From: an uncultured delta proteobacterium
Lineage (GTDB): Bacteria > Desulfobacterota > Binatia > Binatales > Binataceae
Length of the DNA stretch: 64,000 bases
Reading direction: 5' to 3'
Assembly: GCA_963808235.1 (NCBI GenBank)
Contig: CAWEEQ010000004.1
Location: 1,024,001 to 1,088,000 of the forward strand
In this document: positions 1-12,098 of the stretch, one piece after another
How the letters are laid out: every line of letters begins with the position of its first letter
Position numbering within the stretch: the stretch's first letter is position 1
Translations under genes and position numbers: made by a program
Notes under the pieces: generated by a model
The model's input: only the letters and a program-made list of their open reading frames with translations
What the model was told of the DNA's origin: nothing
The model's database searches: none

Positions 1-243
1 GCCTACACATTCGACTCCAACGGAAACGTTCAACTTCCTCACGGAAACGTATTCGCGGTGATCGTCACCGGACCCGGCGGAGCACTGCTTGTCGAAGGTA
101 CCGACTTCACCGTGGACCGAGCCGACGGAATTATCGTGGCAAGAGACGGCAATGCGCTCTTACCGGGCGAAACAGTCCAGATCGCGTACGCATACGCCGA
201 CCAGGCAATAGCAACTACGAATCAAAGTGCGCCGACTAACTAG
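1..243 (+). CDS. 3' end of upstream phage tail-associated protein (5'-truncated by window; possibly tail terminator/Gp37-like)
   Basis: Frame 1 is open from base 1 (AYTFDSNGNVQLPHGNVFAVIVTG...) to TAG at 241-243. It lies directly upstream of the sheath, and its C-terminal domain resembles a domain inside the sheath. Confidence 0.7.
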   Translation, partial: AYTFDSNGNVQLPHGNVFAVIVTGPGGALLVEGTDFTVDRADGIIVARDGNALLPGETVQIAYAYADQAIATTNQSAPTN

Positions 244-275
244 TTCATACGACTCAACTGAGTAATAGGTGATAC

Positions 276-1817
276 ATGCCAGCCAGTTTCTTGCACGGGA
301 TTGAAGTAATCGAAGTACCGAATGGATCGGTCGCAGTAAGCGTCGTGAAGTCAGCGGTGATTGGGCTGGTGGGGAGCGCTCCTTCGTGGGCGGTCACCGC
401 ACCTGCGGTCGCGGTGGCGCCCAATACGCCGACGCTGGTTTCCTCGGCGCTCGATGCGGCGAACTTCGGACCAATTATCCGCGGCTACACGATTCCCTAC
501 GCGCTCGCCGCGATTCAGGCGCAGGGCAGTGGACAGGCCATCGTGGTGAATGTGTTCGACGCGACTCGGCATTTCACTGCGATTGCAGCGACCGCATTCA
601 CCTTCAATGCGAATGGAGCAATCAACCTCGGCCACATGGGAGTATCGAGTGTAGTAGTAACCAGCAACCCGGCGGGCACTACCTACATCGCCGGGACTGA
701 CTATACGCTCGATGCAATCAACGGCGTGATCAGTATAGTGCCGACTGGATCGGGCGGTCACATCACAGCCGGCGCCAGCGTTCTGATTGCGTTCAACTAT
801 GCGGACCCGTCGAAGGTGTCGGACGCCGACGTCGTCGGCGCGGTGACCGGCGGGGTGTTCACCGGCATCCAGGCGTTTCTGACGACTTTCGGAACGATGG
901 GATTCTTTCCGAAGCTACTGATCGCTCCGGGCTACGCGCAGGACGCATCGGTGGCCACGGCGCTGGGAGCGGCGGCGGACAAGATTCGAGCGATGGCGCT
1001 GGTCGACTCGCCGCCGTCGACCTCGGCGGCGGCGGCGATCGCAAACCGCGCGGTGGTGGGCAATGGGTTCGCTTCCACCGACAGCCGCGTCATTCTGTGT
1101 TACCCGCAGGAAACTTTCTTCGACACCGGAATAGTCCCAACCGGTGTGACGCTCAGCACTTCGGGAACTCCGGTAACGACGCAGCTCAACGCAAACGCGG
1201 TGGCGCCTTACTCGCAGTGGGTAGCCGGCGCGATCGCCGCGCGCGATCTCGCCAATGGCTATTGGTGGTCGCCGTCGAACATGCAAGTAAACGGCATCCT
1301 CGGTCCGGACGTTCAGCTCTACGCCTCGATACTGGATCCGTCGTCGGACGTGAACAACCTGAACGCGGCCGGAATCGTAACGGTGTTCAACGCCTTCGGC
1401 AGCGGGCTCCGGGTGTGGGGAAACCGGAGCGCGGCGTATCCGCTGTCGACCACGCCGGCCAATTTCATTTCGGTGCGGCGCACGATGGACGTGATCGAAG
1501 AGTCGGTGGAACTTGCGATGTTGCAGTTCATCGATCAGCCGATCTCGAACGCGCTGATCGACACGATCCTGGCGAGTGCGAATGCATTCATCAGATCGCT
1601 AATCCAGCGCGGGGCGCTGGTGGATGGATCGGCCAGCTTCAACCCGGCCGAGAATCCAAGCGCGCAAATTGCGGCCGGCCAGTTGGTCTTCGATATCGAC
1701 GTGATGCCGCCGCCACCCACGGAAAGGATTACCTTCCAGGCGTTCATCGATGTGAGCCTGCTCGCGGAACTCGGACAGACCAGTCCTATAACCGCCGCGG
1801 CAGGAGCGACCGCCTAG
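276..1817 (+). CDS. Contractile phage tail sheath protein (P2 FI-like)
   Basis: N-terminal FLHGIEVIEV, AVIGLVG, LLIAPG, GYWWSPSN, GLRVWGNRS and FISVRRT motifs; C-terminal PPPPTERITF; SD-like AGGTGA upstream. Confidence 0.95.
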   Translation: MPASFLHGIEVIEVPNGSVAVSVVKSAVIGLVGSAPSWAVTAPAVAVAPNTPTLVSSALDAANFGPIIRGYTIPYALAAIQAQGSGQAIVVNVFDATRHFTAIAATAFTFNANGAINLGHMGVSSVVVTSNPAGTTYIAGTDYTLDAINGVISIVPTGSGGHITAGASVLIAFNYADPSKVSDADVVGAVTGGVFTGIQAFLTTFGTMGFFPKLLIAPGYAQDASVATALGAAADKIRAMALVDSPPSTSAAAAIANRAVVGNGFASTDSRVILCYPQETFFDTGIVPTGVTLSTSGTPVTTQLNANAVAPYSQWVAGAIAARDLANGYWWSPSNMQVNGILGPDVQLYASILDPSSDVNNLNAAGIVTVFNAFGSGLRVWGNRSAAYPLSTTPANFISVRRTMDVIEESVELAMLQFIDQPISNALIDTILASANAFIRSLIQRGALVDGSASFNPAENPSAQIAAGQLVFDIDVMPPPPTERITFQAFIDVSLLAELGQTSPITAAAGATA

Positions 1818-1842
1818 TCGGCCCGGACGCCAGAGGAAAAGA

Positions 1843-2361
1843 ATGAATATCCAGATCAACTCACTGACTAATGCAAATATCTACATCGACGGTGTCGGGC
1901 TGCTGGGGCGAGCCGAAGAAATTGAAATACCGCATCCCAAGCACAAGATGATCGACTACAAGGGACTGGGCATGGCGGGCACCGCTGAGCTGTGGGCGGG
2001 AGTCGAAAAGCTCGAGTCGCGAATCAAGTGGTCGTCGTTCGACGCGGACACGCTTTCGATGTCGACGAGCCCATTCACCACGCATAACTTTCAGGCCCGC
2101 GGAAGTCTGGAGCAATACACAAGCCAGGGGCGCAGTTCCCAACTTCCGGTCGTTTACCTAATGACGGGAGTATTCAAGGACGCGGGGAGCCCCAGCTTCC
2201 GGCAGCATCACATGGTCGAAACGACGTCGCGCGTAAGTGTGTATCACTGCGAACTATACGTCGCTGGGGTGCAAATTTATTTGTACGACGTGTTCGCAAA
2301 TATCTACGTCGTGGGAGGTGTCGATCAACTGAGTAATTTCCGATCGAATATCGGCGGATGA
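1843..2361 (+). CDS. Phage major tail tube protein (P2 FII-like)
   Basis: 172 aa directly after the sheath; LTNANIYIDG..LLGRAEEIEIP, GMAG, GVEKLE and terminal VGGVDQL..R..IGG. Confidence 0.93.
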   Translation: MNIQINSLTNANIYIDGVGLLGRAEEIEIPHPKHKMIDYKGLGMAGTAELWAGVEKLESRIKWSSFDADTLSMSTSPFTTHNFQARGSLEQYTSQGRSSQLPVVYLMTGVFKDAGSPSFRQHHMVETTSRVSVYHCELYVAGVQIYLYDVFANIYVVGGVDQLSNFRSNIGG

Positions 2362-2401
2362 CCGTGCCTGGCCGCGAAATCGCGGCATGGAGCGATGCGC
2401 T

Positions 2402-2767
2402 ATGAAGACCGACGAAGTTACGGTGAACGGAGTGCGAATCGGCGGCGCGGAGGCTCTGGAAGAGCGAGAGACGAAGACGATCGAGCTGCCGTCGGGAGCG
2501 CGGGCAGAAGTTCGCACGGGTGTGGGGCGCGACTTGATGCGAGCGCAACGGGCAGTGGCCGGCGGAGACGCGAGTGCGGTGGTATTCGCGCTGATCGCGG
2601 AACTCGCGCGGATCGATGGTCGCAAGATCGTCTACGAAGACGTGCTGGAGATGGAACTTGGCGATGTGATGGCGTTGCAGGCGGAGGTGATCGGCGAAAA
2701 TTTCGAGCGCCCTCCGCAGCGAGCTTCGCAGGCCTCGTCCAATCCGGATTCTCAGCCGGAGAGCTAG
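2402..2767 (+). CDS. Phage tail assembly chaperone (GpE/Gp41-like)
   Basis: Follows the tube gene; IELPSG, GRDLMRAQR and EDVLEMELGD fit the TAC family. Start may instead be 2387. Confidence 0.8.
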   Translation: MKTDEVTVNGVRIGGAEALEERETKTIELPSGARAEVRTGVGRDLMRAQRAVAGGDASAVVFALIAELARIDGRKIVYEDVLEMELGDVMALQAEVIGENFERPPQRASQASSNPDSQPES

Positions 2768-2862
2768 CCGAGATGGATTTTGCGGAGCTGTCGTACTGGC
2801 TCGATGCGGTCGCGGAATATGAACGGATGCGCATCGAACGCGGCGGAGGGAACGATAGGTGA
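2698..2862 (+). CDS. GpE'/GT extension of tail chaperone reached by -1 frameshift
   Basis: The -1 frame reads KFRAPSAASFAGLVQSGFSAGELAEMDFAELSYWLDAV (GpE-like G.s..el..M...El..W). It begins at slippery heptamer A_AAT_TTC (2698-2704). Confidence 0.75.
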   Translation, partial: KFRAPSAASFAGLVQSGFSAGELAEMDFAELSYWLDAVAEYERMRIERGGGNDR

Positions 2863-2926
2863 GTAGTAATTCGATTGACTATTGCGAAATGCGTGAACCA
2901 ATGAGTCACGCGAACACGGTGAAGCG

Positions 2927-3211
2927 ATGGGTGTGAGACTATTCGTAGGTAATTTGAGTTTTTCGCTGGGCGACAACGATCTGCGCGCGGCATTCGCGGA
3001 CGTGGGTAGTGTGGAACGCGCCGAGATTGTGCGCGATCGCTACGACGGGCGCTCGCGCGGTTTTGGATTCGTCGAGATGCGCAACGAAGACGACGCGGCG
3101 GTGGCTTTGCGTTCGATGAACGGAAAGGAACTCGCGGGACGATTGCTACGCGTTGAAGCGGCAACCTCGCAGCGCCGGCCCTTCGAGCGCAATACGGCGC
3201 GGCCTGGTTAG
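2927..3211 (+). CDS. RNA recognition motif (RRM) RNA-binding protein
   Basis: RNP2 LFVGNL and RNP1 RGFGFVEM, plus NGKELAGRLLRVEAA; 94 aa. Confidence 0.95.
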   Translation: MGVRLFVGNLSFSLGDNDLRAAFADVGSVERAEIVRDRYDGRSRGFGFVEMRNEDDAAVALRSMNGKELAGRLLRVEAATSQRRPFERNTARPG

Positions 3212-3243
3212 CGCCGAGCGAAGTCGCGGTATCGAGATGGATT

Positions 3244-4278
3244 ATGAAAAAGACGGAGCGATCCAAGGCGGACATCATGAAGCGCGGCCCTGGTGAATCG
3301 GCGTTGGCGGGAGGGCACGACGCACTTAGCCAGGTGGCCGGCTTCGTACGCGCAAGTATCGAGGTCGCTCGGGCGACCGATCGGCTGGCAAAGATCGCGC
3401 GACAGCAAATTCCCCTTGCCGCGTACGGACTGGTTACGAGAACCGCGACGCCCGCCGAGATGGAGTCGATGCGAGGTGGCTCTCAGAGCCATCTGGAAGA
3501 TCCGGCGTGGCCAAGTGAAGGTGGGAGCGCGTTTCAAGCTGCGGATGCGATGGTGGCGCTTCAGAGGTTTGCATCGAACCTCAAGGCACTCGACGCGGCA
3601 CGAGTCGGAGAGGGCAGGCGCTTTCTGCGCGGATCGGAAAGCTTAAGCGTGAGAGCGACCGGCGAGATGTCGGAGATCGGCGGGCCGGAAATGGATTCTA
3701 CAGTCGATGCTCGCGGCAGATTTTTCCGGGCCGTTCAGCAGTCGGCCTCTCGCATACAAGCGCTGAGGGGGATCGGAAGCAGAGAACGTCTGGAGGGTCC
3801 GGATGGCAAGCGAAGTTCGAACGTCACGCTCTCATGGGGTGACCTTGCGGGGCGGGCAGATCGCGCGCTTGGCCTTGTCGGCCGACTCTCAACGGAAGGC
3901 GAAGAATCATCACGCGGGCCTGGTCCGCGCTTCGAGCGGAGTCGTGCCTCGTTCAATGTCGACCGAATACTAACTTCGACTGAAAAGTATATGTCGGGGT
4001 CGAGAGGGCGCGGATGGAACGGGGCGAGAGGCACGATAGTTGCGCCGGCGAGTCTTTCGCGGCCGGAATTTGCGGAGCCCATGCGCGGCGTATATGGGCA
4101 GGAGTCGAGGAGCACGCCTGGGGCGATAACGATCAACTCGACTCCGACAGTGGTTATCAATGCGGGCGAGCCCGGCGATGTTGAGCGTCAAGTAGCCGGC
4201 GCGCTGAGACTGCATCGCGAGGAATTGTTCGATCAATTGAAACGAGAGTCGGTGCGGCGCGAACGCGCGCAGTTTTAA
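3244..4278 (+). CDS. Atypical short tape-measure-like protein
   Basis: Occupies the tape-measure position before gpU. The C-terminus ITINSTPTVVINAG...LRLHREELFDQLKRESVRRERAQF resembles P2/Mu tape-measure C-termini; the rest is low-complexity and R/G/S-rich. Confidence 0.6.
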   Translation: MKKTERSKADIMKRGPGESALAGGHDALSQVAGFVRASIEVARATDRLAKIARQQIPLAAYGLVTRTATPAEMESMRGGSQSHLEDPAWPSEGGSAFQAADAMVALQRFASNLKALDAARVGEGRRFLRGSESLSVRATGEMSEIGGPEMDSTVDARGRFFRAVQQSASRIQALRGIGSRERLEGPDGKRSSNVTLSWGDLAGRADRALGLVGRLSTEGEESSRGPGPRFERSRASFNVDRILTSTEKYMSGSRGRGWNGARGTIVAPASLSRPEFAEPMRGVYGQESRSTPGAITINSTPTVVINAGEPGDVERQVAGALRLHREELFDQLKRESVRRERAQF

Positions 4279-4294
4279 GTGAGAGGCAGCACCA

Positions 4295-4873
4295 TTGTTC
4301 GCAACGTTGGGTGAAATTCCGTTCGAAGTAGTCGGCTCGCCTGAGGGCTACGAATCGAGCCGGGCATACGATTTCGCCGAGCATCGAGTGGTCGAGAGCA
4401 AGCCGCGGCTGCAATGGGTAGGCAACGATCTCGAGCGCCTGAAATTTGAATTGCGGCTGCATTCATCGTTCACCGACCCGGCCGCGAAGCTGGCGCTGCT
4501 GCGCGCGACGGCGGCGGCGCATCTCGCGTTGCCGCTGGTTTTTGGCGACGGCGGTTTTCGAGGGTTTTTCGTAATCGAATCCATATCAATGAGATCGCAG
4601 CAACTTTCGGCACACGGTGCTCCGATCGCGATTACAGCCGCGCTCGCGCTCAAGGAATGGGCGGTGGAATCCGAGTTGTTCGCAGGGTCATCGCCGATCC
4701 CGGATTTTGTGCCGCTGGGAATCATGCCGGCGGCGAGTTCGAGCGGCGGCTCGGCGCCGATCCCGGGGATATCGGCATTACTTAGTGTATCTCCTGCGAC
4801 GGGCACGACTGGACCGAACCTCGAGGCAAACGACGTACCAGTCTCGGTGATAGTAAGGAGCGCCGCACCATGA
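4295..4873 (+). CDS. Phage tail protein GpU-like
   Basis: MFATLGEIPF, FAEHRVVESKPRLQWVG, LPLVFGDG.F.GFFVI and LKEW; TTG start; Pro/Ser/Gly-rich C-terminal extension. Confidence 0.9.
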   Translation: MFATLGEIPFEVVGSPEGYESSRAYDFAEHRVVESKPRLQWVGNDLERLKFELRLHSSFTDPAAKLALLRATAAAHLALPLVFGDGGFRGFFVIESISMRSQQLSAHGAPIAITAALALKEWAVESELFAGSSPIPDFVPLGIMPAASSSGGSAPIPGISALLSVSPATGTTGPNLEANDVPVSVIVRSAAP

Positions 4874-5112
4874 CGCAGGGGACGCAATACATACTTCATA
4901 TCACCAAAGCGGGTGAGCGGTGGGATTTGCTTGCGTGGCGATACTACGGCGATCCGACTGACTATAGCCCGATCATAATGGCTAATCCGGATGTTGCGAT
5001 CGAACCGGTATTTGACGCGGGAATAGCTATCGCGGTGCCTATCGTCCAGAAGAGCACGGTGGTGAGCGCAGATTTACCGCCGTGGAAAATGCCGCGGCCG
5101 GTGGGCGTGTAG
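4870..5112 (+). CDS. Phage tail protein X (LysM-like, GpX)
   Basis: HITKAGERWDLLAWRYYGD...ANP...LPPWK; ATGA overlap with gpU. Confidence 0.92.
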   Translation: MTQGTQYILHITKAGERWDLLAWRYYGDPTDYSPIIMANPDVAIEPVFDAGIAIAVPIVQKSTVVSADLPPWKMPRPVGV

Positions 5113-6126
5113 ATGGCTGCCGCAGTATTGCATTCCGTTCGCGCGCCGCAGTGGGTGCTTACCTACGAGGGTGTGAACATCACTACGGATATATCGCACA
5201 TGGTACTTGCGATTAGCTATGTGGACCGGCTTGGTGAGGCGTCGGGCGAGTTTGAGGTAGAGCTGGAAGATCACGCGAAAAAGTGGCAAGGGCCATGGTA
5301 TCCGGGACTGGGAAACATACTCAGTCTGCAGATTGGCTACTCCGGCGAAGCACTACTGGATTGCGGGTCCTTCCAGGTCGACGAACTGGAGTTCGACGGG
5401 CCACCGGATGTGATGCGACTCAGATGCCTGAGCGCGTACATCACACCAGCGATGCGCACGCCAAATACGATGGCCTACGAGGGTCAGAGCATCGTGGATA
5501 TCGCCGGGCAAATCGCGTCCAAGTATGGACTCAGCCTGGTGACGGCGCCCTCGGCCATCGAGAGCGACGTAGTGTTTGCGCGCGTAACCCAACGCCGCGA
5601 AACGGATCTCGGATTTCTGAAGCGCCTTGCAATCGAGCACGGTTTTGACTTCACGGTGCGCGGCGCGCAGATGGTCTTTTACGCGCGGACGGCTCTGGAA
5701 GCGGTAATCCCGCTGGTCGTGATCACACGGCCGGACACGACAGGGTTCTCGTTTCGCAACCGGACGCGGCGAATTTACAGCGGCGCGGAAGTGGCTTACT
5801 TCGATCCTGACACCAAGCAGTTGATCACTCAGACCGTGACAGCGATTCCGCTGGTCCCGACGACGGACACGCTCAAGATCGTAACGCGTTCGGAAAACGC
5901 ACAGCAGGCCCTGGTGAAGGCCCAAGCGGCGCTTCATCTGCACAACATGGTGTTCGTCGATGCGTCGATCGAGGGTCCGGGGAACGTGATGCTGGTGGCG
6001 GGAAACCAAGTGGAGATATCCGGATGGGGCGCGCTTGACGGAGCGTATCTGATTGAAACGGCGCGGCATCGGGTCGCGCGTGCGAGCGGATACACGACTG
6101 CGATCGAGGCGCGCCGGGTTGATTAA
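5113..6126 (+). CDS. Phage late control D / baseplate hub protein (GpD-like)
   Basis: ISYVDR, LQIGYSG, GSFQVDELEFDGPPD, TQRRETDLGFLKRLA and G.YLIETARH. Confidence 0.92.
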   Translation: MAAAVLHSVRAPQWVLTYEGVNITTDISHMVLAISYVDRLGEASGEFEVELEDHAKKWQGPWYPGLGNILSLQIGYSGEALLDCGSFQVDELEFDGPPDVMRLRCLSAYITPAMRTPNTMAYEGQSIVDIAGQIASKYGLSLVTAPSAIESDVVFARVTQRRETDLGFLKRLAIEHGFDFTVRGAQMVFYARTALEAVIPLVVITRPDTTGFSFRNRTRRIYSGAEVAYFDPDTKQLITQTVTAIPLVPTTDTLKIVTRSENAQQALVKAQAALHLHNMVFVDASIEGPGNVMLVAGNQVEISGWGALDGAYLIETARHRVARASGYTTAIEARRVD

Positions 6127-6271
6127 AGTGTCGCAGCGCAAAAGAAAGACCGCTACGCGCGGGGCGGCAGGGGTGACCCCTGCACCCAGTGTCCATTCCA
6201 TTCAATCGCAAAATCCCGCGGACGGTATTTTGCTCCGGTCTGATGGCGAAGATAGGTGAAGGGAACGAATC

Positions 6272-6964
6272 ATGAATCAGCTCATTGAATATCGCGAAAG
6301 ATTTTTCGCGCAGAATCCGGCGTTTCGGGTTGGGATCGTGCAGCAGCAGGATGCCGCGCACGCGAAGGTCCGCGTGGTGTTTCCGGATTACGACGAAGTG
6401 ATCAGTTGGTGGCTGCCGGTGGTTTTCGCGAAGACGCAGAACGACAAAGCTTACTGGATTCCGGACGTCGGAGAGCAAGTCGTTTGTCTGATGGATTTGC
6501 GGGACGAAGCAGGCGCGGTGCTGGGCGCGATTTATTCAGACGCGGACTTGACGCCGGTGAACAGCGCCGACAAGTTTCATCTCGGGTTCCAGGATGGCAC
6601 CAGCATCGACTACGATCGCGCGGCACACGTTCTCGATCTCCTTTTCCAGGACACCACGGAACTCAAGTACGACGCTCATGTCCATCTGCTCGATCTGAAG
6701 TTTCAGGACCAGGGCGAGATCAAATACGACGGCACCGAGCACATTCTGACCGTGAGCCTTCCGCAGGGTGCGGCGTTCAACGTTACCGCGAACGGTGCGC
6801 AGATGCAGATCGATTCTAACGGCGACGTCATCATCAGGGCTGCCGGACAGGTGAGGCTTGGAACCGGTCAACTGGCAGGAGTCGCGCGGTTGGGCGACAC
6901 GGTTCAGGTTGGCAATCAGACGGGAACGATCGTGACGGCGAGCGCCGACGTGTTGGCAGGGTAA
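6272..6964 (+). CDS. Baseplate assembly protein V (spike)
   Basis: OB-fold KVRVVFPD..ISWWLPV, YWIPDVGEQVVCL and GAVLGAIYS; three 19-aa repeats; PAAR-like C-terminus. Confidence 0.92.
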   Translation: MNQLIEYRERFFAQNPAFRVGIVQQQDAAHAKVRVVFPDYDEVISWWLPVVFAKTQNDKAYWIPDVGEQVVCLMDLRDEAGAVLGAIYSDADLTPVNSADKFHLGFQDGTSIDYDRAAHVLDLLFQDTTELKYDAHVHLLDLKFQDQGEIKYDGTEHILTVSLPQGAAFNVTANGAQMQIDSNGDVIIRAAGQVRLGTGQLAGVARLGDTVQVGNQTGTIVTASADVLAG

Positions 6965-6967
6965 GCG

Positions 6968-7384
6968 ATGCCGGCAGGAGCAATAACGCTCGCGGACATC
7001 ACGTCGGCGGACTGGTCGCTGGAGCTCGGCACGATTGGCGGGGTGGTACAGGGGATTGCGGACGTCGAGCAGTGTCTGGGGATCATCGTGACGACGCCGC
7101 GCGGTAGCGATCCACTTCGGCCGACGTTTGGCTCGGACATCTGGCGATATATCGATTTTCCGATCGACGAAGCGCTGCCGGCGATCGTGCGTGAGCTGAC
7201 CTCGGCAATCACCACGTGGGAGCCGCGGGTGAATCTGATTTCGGTAACGGCGCAACCGGTGAACGATGGGAGCACGCAGTCGGGGGCGCATCTTGATGTG
7301 ACGCTCACGTGGCAACTGAAGCTCGGCGGCGCACCATCGCCAGCGCAAATCACGATCGTGACAATCCCGGGAGCGGCGGCCTGA
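6968..7384 (+). CDS. Baseplate wedge GpW/gp25 family
   Basis: IIVTTPRGSDPLRPTFGS and AITTWEPRV. Confidence 0.93.
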   Translation: MPAGAITLADITSADWSLELGTIGGVVQGIADVEQCLGIIVTTPRGSDPLRPTFGSDIWRYIDFPIDEALPAIVRELTSAITTWEPRVNLISVTAQPVNDGSTQSGAHLDVTLTWQLKLGGAPSPAQITIVTIPGAAA

Positions 7385-7421
7385 CGCTGGGCCGCGCCGA
7401 TGGCGATGAAAGGATGAGTTG

Positions 7422-8591
7422 ATGGGCGCAGGAATTCCGTCGCTGCCACCGCCGATATTCGTGAACGATGCCGACGGCCTGGATCCGAACAAGATCCTGG
7501 CCGACATGATCGCCGAGTTCGAGGCGGCATCGGGGCGCACGCTTGCGCCGGCGCAAGTCGAGCGCCTGCTGATCAATCTCTATGCTTATCGCGAGTCGCT
7601 GGTGCGAAACGCGATTCAGTATGCGGGGGAGCAGAATCTGCTGGCGTTCGCGTCGTTTCCGATGCTTGACTATCTCGGTCAACTGCTCGGCGTGAGCCGG
7701 CTCGCGTCGCAGCCCGCGTCGACTACGATCCAATTCACACTGACGAACGCGCTCTCGGTGCCGTTTACGATTGCGGCGGGAACCCTGGTTGGGACCAACG
7801 ATGGGAACTTTGCATTTGCGACGGGCGCCGCAATCACGATCGCGGCGGGCGCGACGACCGCGAGTGTCGCAGCCCTGGCGACCGCTCCAGGAGCCGCCGC
7901 GAACGGCTACTTGGCCGGACAGGTGAGCGTACAGCTGAATCCGAGCGCGCTAATCGCGAGCGCTAGCAATACGACGACGACTGCAGGTGGATCGGCTCCT
8001 GAGACCGACGATCATCTGCGGACACGAATCCAGGCGGCGCCCAATCAATTCAGCGTCGCAGGACCGGTCGGCGCGTACCGGTTTTTCGCGATCGGCGCCG
8101 ATCCGTCGATCATCGACGCGCAGATCATGAGTCCGGCGCCGGGAATAGTGAACGCATACGTGCTGACCGGACCGATCAGTGTGCAGCCCGCGGCGGCGCC
8201 GAACAGCGCCGGGGTAGCGAGCGGATTGCTGCTCGCAAAAGTTGCGGCGGCGCTGAACGCAGACATCGTGCGGCCGCTTACCGACACGGTGAACGCGCTC
8301 GCGGTGACTGAAATCGACTACCAGATAAGCGCGACGGTAACACTTTATGCCGACGCCGATCCGACCGCGACGATAGCGGCGGCGAGTGCGGCGGCGCAGG
8401 AGCTCGCGCTCGAGCTGGCGGCGAAGATACAGCGCGACATCGTGCCGAGCCAGGTTATCGCGGCGCTTTCGGTAGCGGGGGTGTACGGTGTGACGCTCTC
8501 GTCGCCGGCGCTGACGACGCTCGGCGTGGGGCAGTGGGCGAACTGTACTGCGATTACGCTGACGACCGCGTTCAGCACGGAGCATAGCTGA
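7422..8591 (+). CDS. Baseplate J/gp47 family protein
   Basis: GRTLAPAQVERLLI, QNLLAFA, GG...ETDDHLRTRI, FSVAGP..AYRF and VRPLTDTV. Confidence 0.93.
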   Translation: MGAGIPSLPPPIFVNDADGLDPNKILADMIAEFEAASGRTLAPAQVERLLINLYAYRESLVRNAIQYAGEQNLLAFASFPMLDYLGQLLGVSRLASQPASTTIQFTLTNALSVPFTIAAGTLVGTNDGNFAFATGAAITIAAGATTASVAALATAPGAAANGYLAGQVSVQLNPSALIASASNTTTTAGGSAPETDDHLRTRIQAAPNQFSVAGPVGAYRFFAIGADPSIIDAQIMSPAPGIVNAYVLTGPISVQPAAAPNSAGVASGLLLAKVAAALNADIVRPLTDTVNALAVTEIDYQISATVTLYADADPTATIAAASAAAQELALELAAKIQRDIVPSQVIAALSVAGVYGVTLSSPALTTLGVGQWANCTAITLTTAFSTEHS

Positions 8592-8592
8592 T

Positions 8593-9456
8593 ATGCCTGA
8601 GCTTTCCGCGGCGCCCTCGATAAACGATACGCGCACGCAGGCGTTGCTGGAATTGATCGCGCGGCTGGCTGCGCTCGATCTGACGCAGATCCTGGTTTAT
8701 CGGATCGACTCGGTGCCGGAGGGCGCATTGCCATTTCTCGCGTGGCAGTTCGACATCCTGTCGCCGCTGTGGCAGTTGGTTGCGCCGGTGTCGCTTGGAG
8801 TCGATGCGCTTTCCGATATCGATCTGTTGATCGACATCGACAACCTGATCGAGACCGGCGGAATTGTGTCGGGCGAGAGTCTTACCGAGGCGGCGCAGCG
8901 CGTAATGCTCAAGAGCGCCGTGCCGTTGCATCGCTTCCGCGGAACCCCGTTTGCGGTGAAGCAGGCGCTAGCGTCGCTCGGATGGACGCAGGTCAATCTG
9001 CTTGAAGGGCAATCGAGATGGGGCGGAGCGAGCTATCCTTCGAGCCAGGGTTGGGCGGTTTTTCGGGTGATGATCGACTTGGTGGACGGGCAGAGCGTGG
9101 CGAGCGGGGTGGTATCGACGGCGGCCGCGGCGGTGAATTTTTTCAAGCCTGCGCGCGCATGGCTGGATTCGATTTGGTTTGTGACGCCGCCGGTGTCTGA
9201 TGTGGGGCCGACGCCCTCAGACGAATTCACGCTTGGAGGAATCGTTCAATACCAGATCGACGCGGCTCGAGTACCTGGCGACGGCGGACTGGCTATAGCC
9301 ATTGTGTCCGCGGCAATTGTGGATGCGTACGGTCCGATCATGCCCATTTACGATAGTCACTATCGGCATAGCGGAATCACCTATGGCGTCAACGAGCCCG
9401 AAGTGGCGGATTGCGCCCTGTTGATGAACGGCGCGGCCGTCTTGGACGGAGGTTAA
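8593..9456 (+). CDS. Phage tail protein I (GpI-like)
   Basis: LVYRIDSV..ALPFLAWQF, LHRFRGTPFAVKQAL, WAVFRV and FFKPARAWL. Confidence 0.88.
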   Translation: MPELSAAPSINDTRTQALLELIARLAALDLTQILVYRIDSVPEGALPFLAWQFDILSPLWQLVAPVSLGVDALSDIDLLIDIDNLIETGGIVSGESLTEAAQRVMLKSAVPLHRFRGTPFAVKQALASLGWTQVNLLEGQSRWGGASYPSSQGWAVFRVMIDLVDGQSVASGVVSTAAAAVNFFKPARAWLDSIWFVTPPVSDVGPTPSDEFTLGGIVQYQIDAARVPGDGGLAIAIVSAAIVDAYGPIMPIYDSHYRHSGITYGVNEPEVADCALLMNGAAVLDGG

Positions 9457-9457
9457 G

Positions 9458-9922
9458 ATGAAAAGTCCGGCGGGAATTGTGCGGATCCGACTGCTGAAGC
9501 GAGGTCGCGTCGCGTGGACCTACGAGGGGCGCAATCTTTTCGTGAATGCGGGAAGACCGGCGCTCGCGGCGCTCCTCGGAGGCGATACCGCCGGCGAATT
9601 TGCGGCGGCAGTCGGGTTCGGATCGGGCTCGTTGGCTCCCACAGTGAACGACACGGCGCTGACGGCGCCCGGATACTACAAGGCGCTCGACAGCCACAGC
9701 GAAGACGGCAGTGGGAGCGTGACGTTCAACTGGTCCCTGACCGGGGCTGACACGGGAGCGCTGGGAATAACAATTCAGGAATTGGCGCTGTTCGCGAATC
9801 ACGCGAGCGCGGGCTTGCCGGGTACAACCGCGCCGACTCCGATGCTCGCGCGCAAGACGATCGCGCCGATAGTCTTCGGGACGGGAATGAGTATCAGCGG
9901 CACGTGGACCCTTACTTTCTGA
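9458..9922 (+). CDS. Tail-fibre baseplate-anchor-like protein
   Basis: NLFVNAG..ALA.LLGG, GFGSG..APT..DTAL, IQELALF and LARKT...GTWTLTF resemble fibre N-terminal anchor domains encoded as a stand-alone gene. Confidence 0.65.
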   Translation: MKSPAGIVRIRLLKRGRVAWTYEGRNLFVNAGRPALAALLGGDTAGEFAAAVGFGSGSLAPTVNDTALTAPGYYKALDSHSEDGSGSVTFNWSLTGADTGALGITIQELALFANHASAGLPGTTAPTPMLARKTIAPIVFGTGMSISGTWTLTF

Positions 9923-9930
9923 GGTAGTCA

Positions 9931-10494
9931 ATGGCTACACTAATCGACGCAGCGGAGTTTACCTCGAATGAGGTTTACCAAATTCAAGCGACCGACCCGG
10001 TCGAGGGCGCGGCGAGTGGCGCGACCTTCAACGGCACCGGCATTTCCAACCAGCCGCATCAGCAACTTGCAAATCGAACCGCGTTCCTGAAGCAGCGCCA
10101 GGATGTGAACATCGGGAATATCGGCGTCCTGCAGGCATTCATGGGCGCGTTCGCGGGTTCGATCTCGGGAAATGGATATCTGACAATTCCGATCGCGGAT
10201 GTGAATCGCGGATCGATCGTTGCGATTTTGGAGTGGGGCGCGATGTTTCCGGGTGGGGGTCTGGATGACGATACGAACTACGCGGTGACCTGGCCGACGG
10301 CATTTCCCAACGCGTGCATCTGGGCGATGGCGACGCTCGCGAATCCGCGTGGGAGAGCGCATATCGCAAAGTTGGTAATAGATGTCGTCAGTTACACCAG
10401 GACGATAGGTACGTTTCGATCGGCCTTCATCGCCGGCTCGGACAGCACCCAGGCTCCGAACGACGGCTTTTACTGGATGGCGATCGGATTCTGA
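9931..10494 (+). CDS. Short tail fibre protein (gp53-like C-terminal domain)
   Basis: VYQI..TDPVEG..SN.PHQQLANRTAFLK fibre N-terminal motif; NGYL.IP..LEWG..WPTAFPNAC...YWMAIGF tip domain. Confidence 0.75.
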   Translation: MATLIDAAEFTSNEVYQIQATDPVEGAASGATFNGTGISNQPHQQLANRTAFLKQRQDVNIGNIGVLQAFMGAFAGSISGNGYLTIPIADVNRGSIVAILEWGAMFPGGGLDDDTNYAVTWPTAFPNACIWAMATLANPRGRAHIAKLVIDVVSYTRTIGTFRSAFIAGSDSTQAPNDGFYWMAIGF

Positions 10495-10501
10495 ACGCGA
10501 G

Positions 10502-11944
10502 TCAGGCGAGAGCGGCGATGATTCGTTCCATCGCGATTCCGCGGGAGCCTTTGACCAGCAGGACGTCGCCGGCGCGGACCAATCCGGCGACGAGATCGGC
10601 GGCGGCGGCGGAATCGGGCGCGACGAGAACATCAGAGGGAAGGCTCGAGCCCGCGACCGTCGCGAGCCCGGCGCTCATTTCGGGGCCGACGGCGACGAAC
10701 GCGGCGGGCCGTTCGCGCATGATGTCGCGGATGGCGTCATGGTGCGCGGCCGCACTCATCGCACCCAACTCGAGCATATCGCCCATCGCAATCACGAGGC
10801 GCGCGCCGAGGCCATGCGCGACCTCGCGCGCCGCGCTGAGTGCAACGCGAATCGAGCGCGGGTTCGAGTTATAGGTGTCGTCGATCACGATAACGCCGCC
10901 AATGGTGGAGCTCGACAAGCGCCCGGCGACTGGCTTTGCACTGGCGAGCGCAGCGGCGATTGCGGCTAATTCGGGAGCGTTGAAAGGCTTGGGGCGTATC
11001 GCGGCGAGAGCTGCAATCGCGGCGGCACAATTAAGCGCGGCAGTTTCACCCAGGAGAGCGATTTCGGTTTCGACAAACGGTTCGACGCCGGTGGAGACGA
11101 ACGAGCGGGCAATTTCGATTTTGATCTGCGATCGAGCGCCTACGATCCTGCCACGAAGCCGCACGGTCGCATCGGGCGATTTGCCAAACGTGATTAGCTT
11201 CAGATGTTTCGGTATGCGTGCGAGGACGAGCGGTTCTTCGGCTGAGGCGACCGCATAACGTCTGGCGGTTGAGAACAGCGCCGCTTCCTCATCGGCGATC
11301 TCGTCGAGAGTGCCGAGGCCCTCGCTATGTTCGAGATCGACGTTGAGGACAATCGCGGCGTCCGGCTCCACGATGCGTGCGAGCTTTGGAATTTCTCCGC
11401 GGGTGTTGGTGCCGCATTCGAGCACGACGGCGTTGTGCCGGTCGGTGAGCGTGAAGATCGTCATCGGCACGCCGATGAGATTGTTGAAATTAGCGGTGGT
11501 CGATAAAGCGGTTCCGAAGAGCGCGCGAGTGATGGCGGCAGTCAGCTCCTTGGTCGTGGTTTTGCCGGCGGCGCCTCCGATTGCGAGCACCGGGAGCGGA
11601 CGTTTGGCGCGAATCCTCGCGAGATGGCTATGCGCGAGATTGCCGAGCGCGGCGAGCGTGTCGGCAACCTCGATGCAGGCTAGTGCGGAAGTTTGTCTTC
11701 CGGTCTCGACGACTGCGGCCCTCGCGCCGCGCTCGCGGGCTTGCGCGAGATAGTCGTGGCCGTCGGATCCGACGCCGCGAAGCGCGACGAACAGATTGCC
11801 CGGCACGAGCGAGCGAGTATCGATGCTGACGCCTTTGATCGCGCCGTCGCCAATCTCGGTCGAAGAGTGGAGCCGGCCGCCGCACGCCTCGACCACTTCG
11901 GCGAGAGTGAACTCACATTGATTGCTGGGAATCGGCGTCGTCAT
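10502..11944 (-). CDS. murF: UDP-N-acetylmuramoyl-tripeptide--D-Ala-D-Ala ligase
   Basis: SIDTRSL..GNLFVALRG..DGHDY, GKTTTKE, NFNNLIGVP, IDDTYNSNP, GDMLELG and LVKGSRG. Confidence 0.96.
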   Translation of the reverse strand: MTTPIPSNQCEFTLAEVVEACGGRLHSSTEIGDGAIKGVSIDTRSLVPGNLFVALRGVGSDGHDYLAQARERGARAAVVETGRQTSALACIEVADTLAALGNLAHSHLARIRAKRPLPVLAIGGAAGKTTTKELTAAITRALFGTALSTTANFNNLIGVPMTIFTLTDRHNAVVLECGTNTRGEIPKLARIVEPDAAIVLNVDLEHSEGLGTLDEIADEEAALFSTARRYAVASAEEPLVLARIPKHLKLITFGKSPDATVRLRGRIVGARSQIKIEIARSFVSTGVEPFVETEIALLGETAALNCAAAIAALAAIRPKPFNAPELAAIAAALASAKPVAGRLSSSTIGGVIVIDDTYNSNPRSIRVALSAAREVAHGLGARLVIAMGDMLELGAMSAAAHHDAIRDIMRERPAAFVAVGPEMSAGLATVAGSSLPSDVLVAPDSAAAADLVAGLVRAGDVLLVKGSRGIAMERIIAALA

Positions 11945-12098
11945 TTTAGATAAACTGCCGGGTCCATTGTGCCGAATTATCGCCAGCGGTTATACCGCCA
12001 CGTTCTTGACATGACGCCGAGAGCGAATCAGCCTTCAGATTCGACTTTTCGACGGGCATTCGATGAAGAGGCGAACAGCTTCGGGGAGGCAGGAATCG

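Follow-up and report, generated by a model that had tools for sequence, protein, structure and literature searches.

A gene for a single-domain RNA-binding protein lies within the contractile-tail operon of what looks like a domesticated Mu-like prophage element in the Binataceae genome investigated here. Our analysis starts from a stretch of 64,000 nucleotides (contig CAWEEQ010000004.1, positions 1,024,001 to 1,088,000, referred to as the window), in which this RNA recognition motif (RRM) gene is located between the gene of a tail assembly chaperone and an open reading frame (ORF) in the position of the tail tape measure. The gene occupies the same slot in related elements, has a single origin and is under strong purifying selection. 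The RRM protein probably has a job in this putative particle-making system. As a tentative explanation we favor an RNA-binding accessory protein that is co-expressed with the tail genes and acts in trans on RNA in the producing cell.

The gene starts with an ATG codon and encodes 94 amino acids. RRM_1 (PF00076) is the only Pfam family matched by the product (76.7 bits compared with a cut-off of 20.7, E 1.3e-21, residues 5 to 74), which contains both ribonucleoprotein motifs of a canonical RRM, LFVGNL (RNP2) and RGFGFVEM (RNP1), as described in the initial annotation. An alignment of 69 orthologues revealed that residues R44, G45 and F48 of RNP1 and G8 and N9 of RNP2 are invariant, while F46, G47, V49, L5 and L10 are conserved in 90% or more of the sequences. 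The AlphaFold2 model derived from this alignment (mean predicted local distance difference test score 83.9) shows the β-α-β-β-α-β fold, with strands at residues 3-8, 29-36, 43-51 and 75-78, helices at 16-24 and 54-64, and a disordered tail at 82-94. Its top matches in the Protein Data Bank are RNA-bound RRMs, namely TIA-1 RRM2, GR-RBP1 and hnRNP A18, with template modeling scores of ∼0.8. The ORF encodes a genuine single-RRM protein that looks able to bind RNA, and the invariant aromatic surface of RNP1 and RNP2 suggests, by analogy to the family, that the ligand would be single-stranded RNA.

The genome carries four other RRM genes, whose products are 38–46% identical to the 94-amino-acid protein. 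All four of these host paralogues have a glycine run, which is found in no copy of the element RRM; the C-terminal tail of the latter reads TSQRRPFERNTARPG. The GC contents of the RRM gene at codon positions 1, 2 and 3 (0.69/0.49/0.66) are similar to those of its neighbors.

The order of genes around the RRM is sheath, tube, chaperone, RRM, tape-measure-position ORF and gpU, in agreement with the slot between chaperone and tape measure assigned by the initial annotation. The gene is separated by 64 nt from the end of the –1 frame extension of the chaperone gene and by 32 nt from the tape-measure-like ORF. RRM genes beside chaperone and gpU genes, for which the initial annotation had suggested a search, are indeed found in other genomes. 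In IMG/VR, 35 loci encode a protein 82–90% identical to the window's, all 35 with the same neighbors as far as the contigs reach. A second viral scan with a divergent orthologue added 10 loci, each with the order tube-chaperone-RRM-tape measure-gpU, so that the RRM is located in the slot in 45 of 45 viral contigs. Species-representative genomes contain 54 RRM loci. The 39 loci with 64–90% identity are all accompanied by the full tail cluster, and their record titles mostly read Candidatus Binatus, Binataceae or “uncultured delta proteobacterium”; the other 15, from other phyla (42–54% identity), have no tail gene nearby.

A census of the family comprised 165 genomes from 30 genera, with the tube gene as marker of the element. 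The tube gene is present in 117 genomes, nearly always in single copy, and 63 of these harbor the RRM at a strict threshold (E ≤ 1e-25), including the genome of the window, 44 of the 46 others of its genus, and 11 of 11 genomes of genus g28. All 63 strict RRMs share the strand of the tube gene and follow it at a distance of 56–835 nt, and none is found away from the element at this threshold; genera lacking the element do not have such an RRM in the same census. We also extracted the slot from 51 genomes across the genera, mostly without a strict hit, which yielded 17 more divergent RRMs (46–56% identical to the window's; genera g13, g15, g17, g18 and g27). Taken together, the RRM is present in 80 and absent from 28 of the tube-positive genomes; nine further copies fall at contig ends or in fragmented assemblies or flagged genomes, which gives 80 of 108 readable copies. 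The absences are distributed over g24 (12), g10 (6), g25 (3), g17 (2) and g3, g21, g22, g15 and g1 (one each), the g15 case being a decayed remnant and the g1 case a deletion from tube to gpJ. These tallies include unpublished genomes (G022, G023 and G162 among the 63; G106 and G167-169 among the 117; loci L077 and L082 likewise), and no conclusion is based on these alone.

A tblastn search of 50,697 phage records returned just three distant RRM matches (36–44% identity), one in a Microcystis phage record and two in records labeled Acinetobacter phage, and a viral fold library gave 11 hits at E ≤ 1e-3, all of them RRMs of giant viruses.

A maximum-likelihood tree of 79 RRMs, built on 94 columns only, unites all 60 element copies (55 close and 5 divergent) in one clade with support of 98/89; the 4 host paralogues and the 15 RRMs from other phyla fall outside it. 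The element RRMs are thus a clade separate from the host paralogues, a point that the initial annotation had named as a check. In the tube-protein tree of 61 elements, RRM presence requires six changes: the RRM-less genera g10 and g3 are nested among the RRM-bearing g9, g1 and g28, and g24 and g22 stand beside g18. A single gain followed by about five losses fits both trees, indicating that the RRM was captured once by the element and has been an accessory gene since then. Within the genus, the median ratio of nonsynonymous to synonymous substitution rates (dN/dS) of the RRM gene is 0.057 at a synonymous divergence (dS) of 0.88, comparable to tube (0.038) and capsid (0.058); the other tail genes show values of 0.10–0.18. 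These observations leave practically no room for a chance ORF or for a housekeeping RRM that was inserted recently and only once, the latter being the outcome that the initial annotation had named as its refutation: the paralogues are distant, the slot holds an orthologue in each of 80 genomes and 45 viral contigs, and selection has acted over a considerable time; nothing was found in favor of either.

The RRM gene is part of a cluster of ∼38.6 kb (G000:C4:995868-1034494, corresponding to window positions 1-10494 and loci L098 and L007), the right border of which is the host gene murF. Upstream of the window, it continues with genes for a CI/LexA-like repressor with helix-turn-helix and S24 domains, a GH108 endolysin, the small and large terminase subunits, a Mu-type portal, a cargo block, a Mu I protease, a virion protein, a Mu gpT capsid protein, gp36 and gp37. 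The cargo, ∼13.7 kb of unrelated genes (L007:2005-15744; G000:C4:1006005-1019744), splits the head module between portal and protease and encodes a methyltransferase, a Kelch-repeat protein, a Flp-pilin-like ORF, a 983-aa NHL-repeat protein and a 1261-aa DUF7948 protein. In five of five other species, murF is found 7–11 kb beyond the RRM, and in four of five a repressor homologue lies 23–37 kb on its other side; given this range of distances, the cargo block probably varies between species.

Several observations indicate that this element has been inherited vertically in the Binataceae over a long time and under purifying selection. In the same five genome pairs, dS is 0.8–1.4 for element genes and 0.6–1.3 for murF and three further flanking host genes, the element proteins are more conserved than MurF (67–72% identical), and the identity of the tube protein drops stepwise genus by genus. 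The dN/dS values of the structural genes are 0.04–0.18. In a phylum sample of 301 genomes, the tube gene was found only in four genomes of this family and in none of the 297 outside of it. Among the scanned ORFs of C4:995868-1034494, neither Pfam nor PHROGs identified an integrase, transposase or replication gene, several small ORFs being without any hit. Because of the fixed site at murF, the dS equal to that of flanking host genes and the lack of detected integrase and transposase genes, the cluster looks like a domesticated Mu-like prophage element rather than an ordinary prophage, a feature that the initial annotation had not recognized.

PBSX-type defective prophages and gene transfer agents are domesticated prophage-like systems with particles that package host DNA or kill neighboring cells. 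The element resembles them in combining head, packaging, tail, lysis and repressor genes without integration or replication genes among the ORFs scanned, and also in its fixed chromosomal site across species, the purifying selection on its structural genes and a dS like that of host genes. It differs in having Mu-like head genes and a cargo that interrupts the head module. To our knowledge, no such system carries an RRM gene or has lost its tape measure.

Such a loss is seen in a number of the copies analyzed here. In 14 genomes, the order is chaperone-RRM-gpU, with ∼70–110 nt between RRM and gpU and no tape-measure ORF: all ten genomes examined of g28 (L113, L159-L167), both of g9 (L114, L158), one of g6 (L156) and one of g4 (L115). 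These genomes have retained the chaperone gene and its slippery site, and in g28 chaperone, RRM, gpU, gpX and gpD show dN/dS values of 0.08–0.16 at a dS of ∼0.88 (RRM 0.083, chaperone 0.16). With the tape-measure ORF of the window as query, nothing was found elsewhere in five tape-measure-less genomes, a weak search that had no positive control. Two more loci, G012 (L117) and L082, the latter flagged as unpublished, show the order tube-RRM-gpU with neither chaperone nor tape measure, which brings the loci without a tape-measure ORF to 16. One RRM-less element (g3) also shows the order tube-gpU, indicating that the tape measure can be lost independently of the RRM. The retention of the RRM in the 14 genomes without a tape measure and in the two without a chaperone as well argues against a function tied to the frameshift of the chaperone or to the tape measure. 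These patterns may also be compatible with a role of the RRM in the tail itself. A phage-type tail kept without a tape measure is not known to us from elsewhere.

In the 64-nt spacer upstream of the RRM gene, the initial annotation had pointed out TTGACT and an inverted repeat, GCGTGA-N9-TCACGC. The letters are all in place (2875-2880, 2891-2896 and 2906-2911, with 9 nt between the arms), but neither a hairpin nor a promoter function is supported. RNAalifold predicted 0 pairs for 59 spacers, and for the six proposed pairs, 72.1% of cells are paired compared with 72.0% in shuffled alignments; the hairpin was rejected as a conserved structure. A consensus scan detected no promoter or terminator near the RRM; the two promoter-like sites in 11 kb are both away from it, and 3.1 would be expected. 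An Rfam search of window positions 1-12000 gave nothing beyond a chance snoRNA-like match (E 0.19). The two motifs are no more than chance or lineage noise. Three blocks of the spacer are conserved within the genus: a stop cluster TGAGTAGTAA, the block GTGACTATAG and the ribosome-binding region ACGGTGAG-N3-ATG. The non-coding 10-nt block GTGACTATAG (TTGACTATTG in the window, positions 2874-2883; alignment columns 18-28) is kept in at least 90% of 59 sequences of the genus, though not in other genera, and could be an internal promoter element or a binding site for protein or RNA.

Based on the position inside the tail operon, the ribosome-binding site of its own and the lack of a detected promoter or terminator, the RRM is most likely co-transcribed with the tail genes. 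When the element is switched on, the protein would be made together with the tail proteins. It would then work in trans on the long late transcript or on other RNAs of the producing cell, either as an RNA chaperone or as a factor for their stability or translation. Several points weigh against this explanation. In the operon we found neither an RNA target nor a conserved RNA structure or an Rfam family, and a position in mid-operon is odd for a factor acting on the whole transcript. The scan for promoters relied on a σ70 consensus, which may not fit this phylum, and the GTGACTATAG block, if it were an internal promoter, would favor a gene that serves the host independently of the tail. Moreover, the RRM was lost at least ∼5 times while the element persisted (g10, g24, g22 and single genomes), showing that it is dispensable in some lineages. 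One copy is decaying in place: in G096 (g15), a 94-aa ORF in the slot (L101:1958-2239) is 31% identical to the RRM of its genus, has lost RNP2 and has no Pfam RRM match (one chance-level Pfam hit), which looks like a loss in progress. The probability not covered by this and the alternatives below is left to other roles, such as counter-defense.

The RRM protein could instead be associated with the particle, alone or together with RNA or single-stranded DNA, as a tail component or assembly factor or by being delivered with the packaged nucleic acid; packaged cargo or an RNA carrier was among the proposals of the initial annotation. It might be the partner of an unusually short tape measure or, in copies that lack the tape-measure gene, fill the tube lumen in its stead. 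We consider such a role unlikely overall, even though several findings agree with it. Every copy of the RRM is located exactly in the slot between chaperone and tape measure; it is as constrained as capsid and tube; all 63 strict copies lie beside the tube gene; and the 14 genomes with the order chaperone-RRM-gpU keep the slippery site and a constrained chaperone, with no tape-measure gene detected elsewhere in the five searched. On the other hand, the RNP surface does not differ from that seen in ordinary RNA-binding RRMs, and RRM-less elements exist both with a tape measure (g10, g24) and without either gene (g3, L107), so that tape-measure loss needs no RRM. A tape measure is a long, mostly helical protein; the RRM protein, with 94 residues and a mixed α/β fold, has only the position in common with it, and its tail does not resemble the C-terminus of the tape measure by eye.

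Fusions of the two genes do not recur either. The frame of the RRM runs on into the tape-measure region in L044:6001-7020 (339 aa) and L079:6001-6846 (281 aa), both in assemblies with many split genes, and these run-ons are probably indel errors rather than natural fusions. Among 115 longer relatives, just one belongs to the element type (281 aa, 70% identity). This protein corresponds to the run-on locus L079 and is probably an assembly error as well. We find it doubtful, and quite improbable in this specific form, that the RRM with bound RNA helps to build the contractile tail, either as ribonucleoprotein partner of a shrunken, arginine-rich tape measure or, where that gene is missing, by filling the lumen or priming growth of the tube. 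A phage-type tail would in this case be started or measured with the help of a nucleic acid. In a second form of the idea, particles may carry an RRM-RNA complex into recipient cells.

The initial annotation had also considered a moron with its own promoter. In such a case, the protein could be an RNA chaperone of the stress type that is carried along by the element, is expressed in normal cells and is kept for its benefit to the host, without any relation to particle production. The accessible parts of the literature describe bacterial single-RRM proteins as post-transcriptional or stress factors (PMC9333190, PMC12232666, PMC13370968), and those known, such as cyanobacterial Rbp1-3 and the RRM-1 proteins of Bacteroides, are stand-alone regulators. 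Since the whole element is fixed in the chromosome, any of its cargo can serve the host; the RRM was retained where chaperone and tape measure were lost, and the conserved 10-nt block could be a promoter element. Nevertheless, this account is improbable in our view. Like the morons of temperate phages, the RRM gene is non-structural and comes as an addition to a late operon, whose orientation it shares, but it differs from them by the lack of called flanking promoters or terminators, a GC content at third codon positions that resembles the neighbors', and one origin with a fixed slot over a dS of ∼1 instead of a patchy, recent presence. It was never relocated outside the element at the strict threshold, it is missing from genera without the element, and in G049 it was deleted together with the tail genes.

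The element RRM resembles bacterial single-RRM proteins without a glycine-rich tail (cyanobacterial Rbp2/Rbp3 type, Bacteroides RRM-1) in having one RRM_1 domain of ∼80 residues, canonical RNP motifs and a short tail, yet theirs are stand-alone host genes, while the element RRMs form a separate clade found only in a phage-derived tail operon. Unlike the glycine-rich stress RRMs (Rbp1, GR-RBP and CIRBP type) and all four host paralogues, it lacks a glycine-rich or RGG C-terminus, which also speaks against the moron account, and its gene does not stand alone.

A regulator of the programmed frameshift in the chaperone gene or of tape-measure translation, as also proposed in the initial annotation, is very unlikely, and less likely than a factor acting on RNA in trans. 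The RRM gene directly follows the stop codon of the frameshift product and ends 32 nt before the start of the tape-measure ORF. According to the part of the source available to us, there is a phage precedent in RegA of T4, a translational repressor with an RRM-like fold that is thought to regulate phage mRNAs post-transcriptionally (PMC7824862). Both are small phage-encoded proteins with an RRM-type fold, RNA binding being a prediction in case of the element RRM; RegA, however, is an early-gene regulator of a lytic phage and belongs to another sequence family, and we found no target or operator for the element RRM. The RRM remains under purifying selection without a tape-measure ORF and is kept where the chaperone is absent too, RRM-less elements have the same slippery heptamer, and the upstream hairpin shows no covariation support.

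In the portions of the literature covered by our search, nothing was found on RRM genes in tail operons, on prophages of Binatota or on phage tails without a tape measure. Bacterial RRM proteins are poorly understood, and we found none described in a phage tail module in the literature, the phage genomes or the viral fold library. The element RRM has been conserved over a long period, under constraint like that on capsid and tube, in a putative particle system that is vertically inherited by a family of abundant uncultured soil bacteria, and provides a defined, testable case for the function of a bacterial RRM. If it acts in tail assembly or travels in the particle, the textbook parts list of phage-type tails changes; if it is a late-mRNA factor, it represents a new class of phage post-transcriptional regulator. 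Two further puzzles come with it, a probably new domesticated Mu-like element and contractile-tail modules that are under selection without a recognizable tape-measure gene.

The features of the window that surround the RRM gene are compiled in Table 1.

Table 1. Features of the tail operon and its right border (window coordinates)
Feature	Position	Strand	Evidence
Contractile tail sheath gene	276-1817	+	Pfam Phage_sheath_1 (8.1e-19), Phage_sheath_1C; phrog_23 (2.7e-93)
Tail tube gene, P2 FII type	1843-2361	+	Pfam Phage_tube 5.6e-41
gpE-like tail assembly chaperone, zero-frame product, 126 aa (putative)	2387-2767	+	Sub-threshold Pfam TAC, phrog_21320 4.1e-24, position, 62-sequence alignment
In-phase slippery heptamer A_AAT_TTC for –1 frameshift	2698-2704	+	Read from sequence; conserved among chaperone genes
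–1 frame chaperone extension (E'-like), ends with TGA 2860-2862	2701-2862	+	ORF 2395-2862 in –1 frame; 72-94% conserved in relatives
64-nt spacer with TTGACT, inverted repeat GCGTGA-N9-TCACGC and conserved GGTGA ribosome-binding site before ATG	2863-2926	+	
Single-RRM RNA-binding protein gene, 94 aa	2927-3211	+	Pfam RRM_1, conserved RNP1/RNP2, dN/dS, fold model
Arginine-rich short ORF (344 aa) in tape-measure position	3244-4278	+	Position, conserved C-terminus, weak Atlas leads
P2 gpU-like tail protein gene	4295-4873	+	Pfam Phage_P2_GpU 1.9e-26
Remaining tail/baseplate module: gpX, gpD, gpV, gpW, gpJ, gpI, phrog_5417 protein, tail fiber	4870-10494	+	Pfam, PHROG
murF, host gene and right border of the element	10502-11944	-	ORF; homologues beyond RRM in other species

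The Pfam chaperone models Phage_TAC_15 and Phage_TAC_7 score below threshold (19.6 and 18.6 bits). The label of this gene is therefore based on its position and on the slippery heptamer A_AAT_TTY, which is in phase in 57 of 62 chaperone orthologues, and we regard it as a probable assignment. A complex prediction for RRM and chaperone returned no verdict (score 0.00) and is evidence neither way.

The name “tape measure” for the following ORF is likewise putative and derives from its position, a conserved C-terminus, of which the last 80 residues are 34–63% conserved in relatives, and weak Atlas leads to tape-measure families. Neither Pfam nor PHROG assigns a family to it, and none of the eight corresponding proteins of relatives that were scanned matches Pfam. 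The arrangement of the operon corresponds to that of P2 and Mu tails, in which the tube and frameshifted chaperone (gpE/E') genes are followed by the tape measure (P2 gpT, Mu gp42) and gpU. It differs by the interposed RRM and by the short tape-measure-like ORF that matches no family model. In RRM-bearing copies this ORF encodes ∼190–430 aa, and in RRM-less ones ∼155–507 aa, based on a crude ORF rule that missed many loci. A replacement of the tape-measure N-terminus by the RRM was considered and dropped, as there is no clear link between RRM presence and ORF length. Arginine content in the same crude comparison was 13.5% versus 9.2%, a figure not relied on because the genomes are related.

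Among the RRM-less loci, those of g10 (L099:1710-2420, L100:1826-2167) contain ∼350–700 nt after the chaperone gene with a shared small ORF that carries the motif QMSLVGGMS. This ORF has an odd composition and no family match; it may represent a replacement gene, or else a longer tape measure may begin here. At locus L118 (G049, a genome of the window's genus with a completeness of 100), a broken tube gene is fused to mid-gpJ by a deletion that has removed the genes for chaperone, RRM, tape measure, gpU, X, D, V and W.

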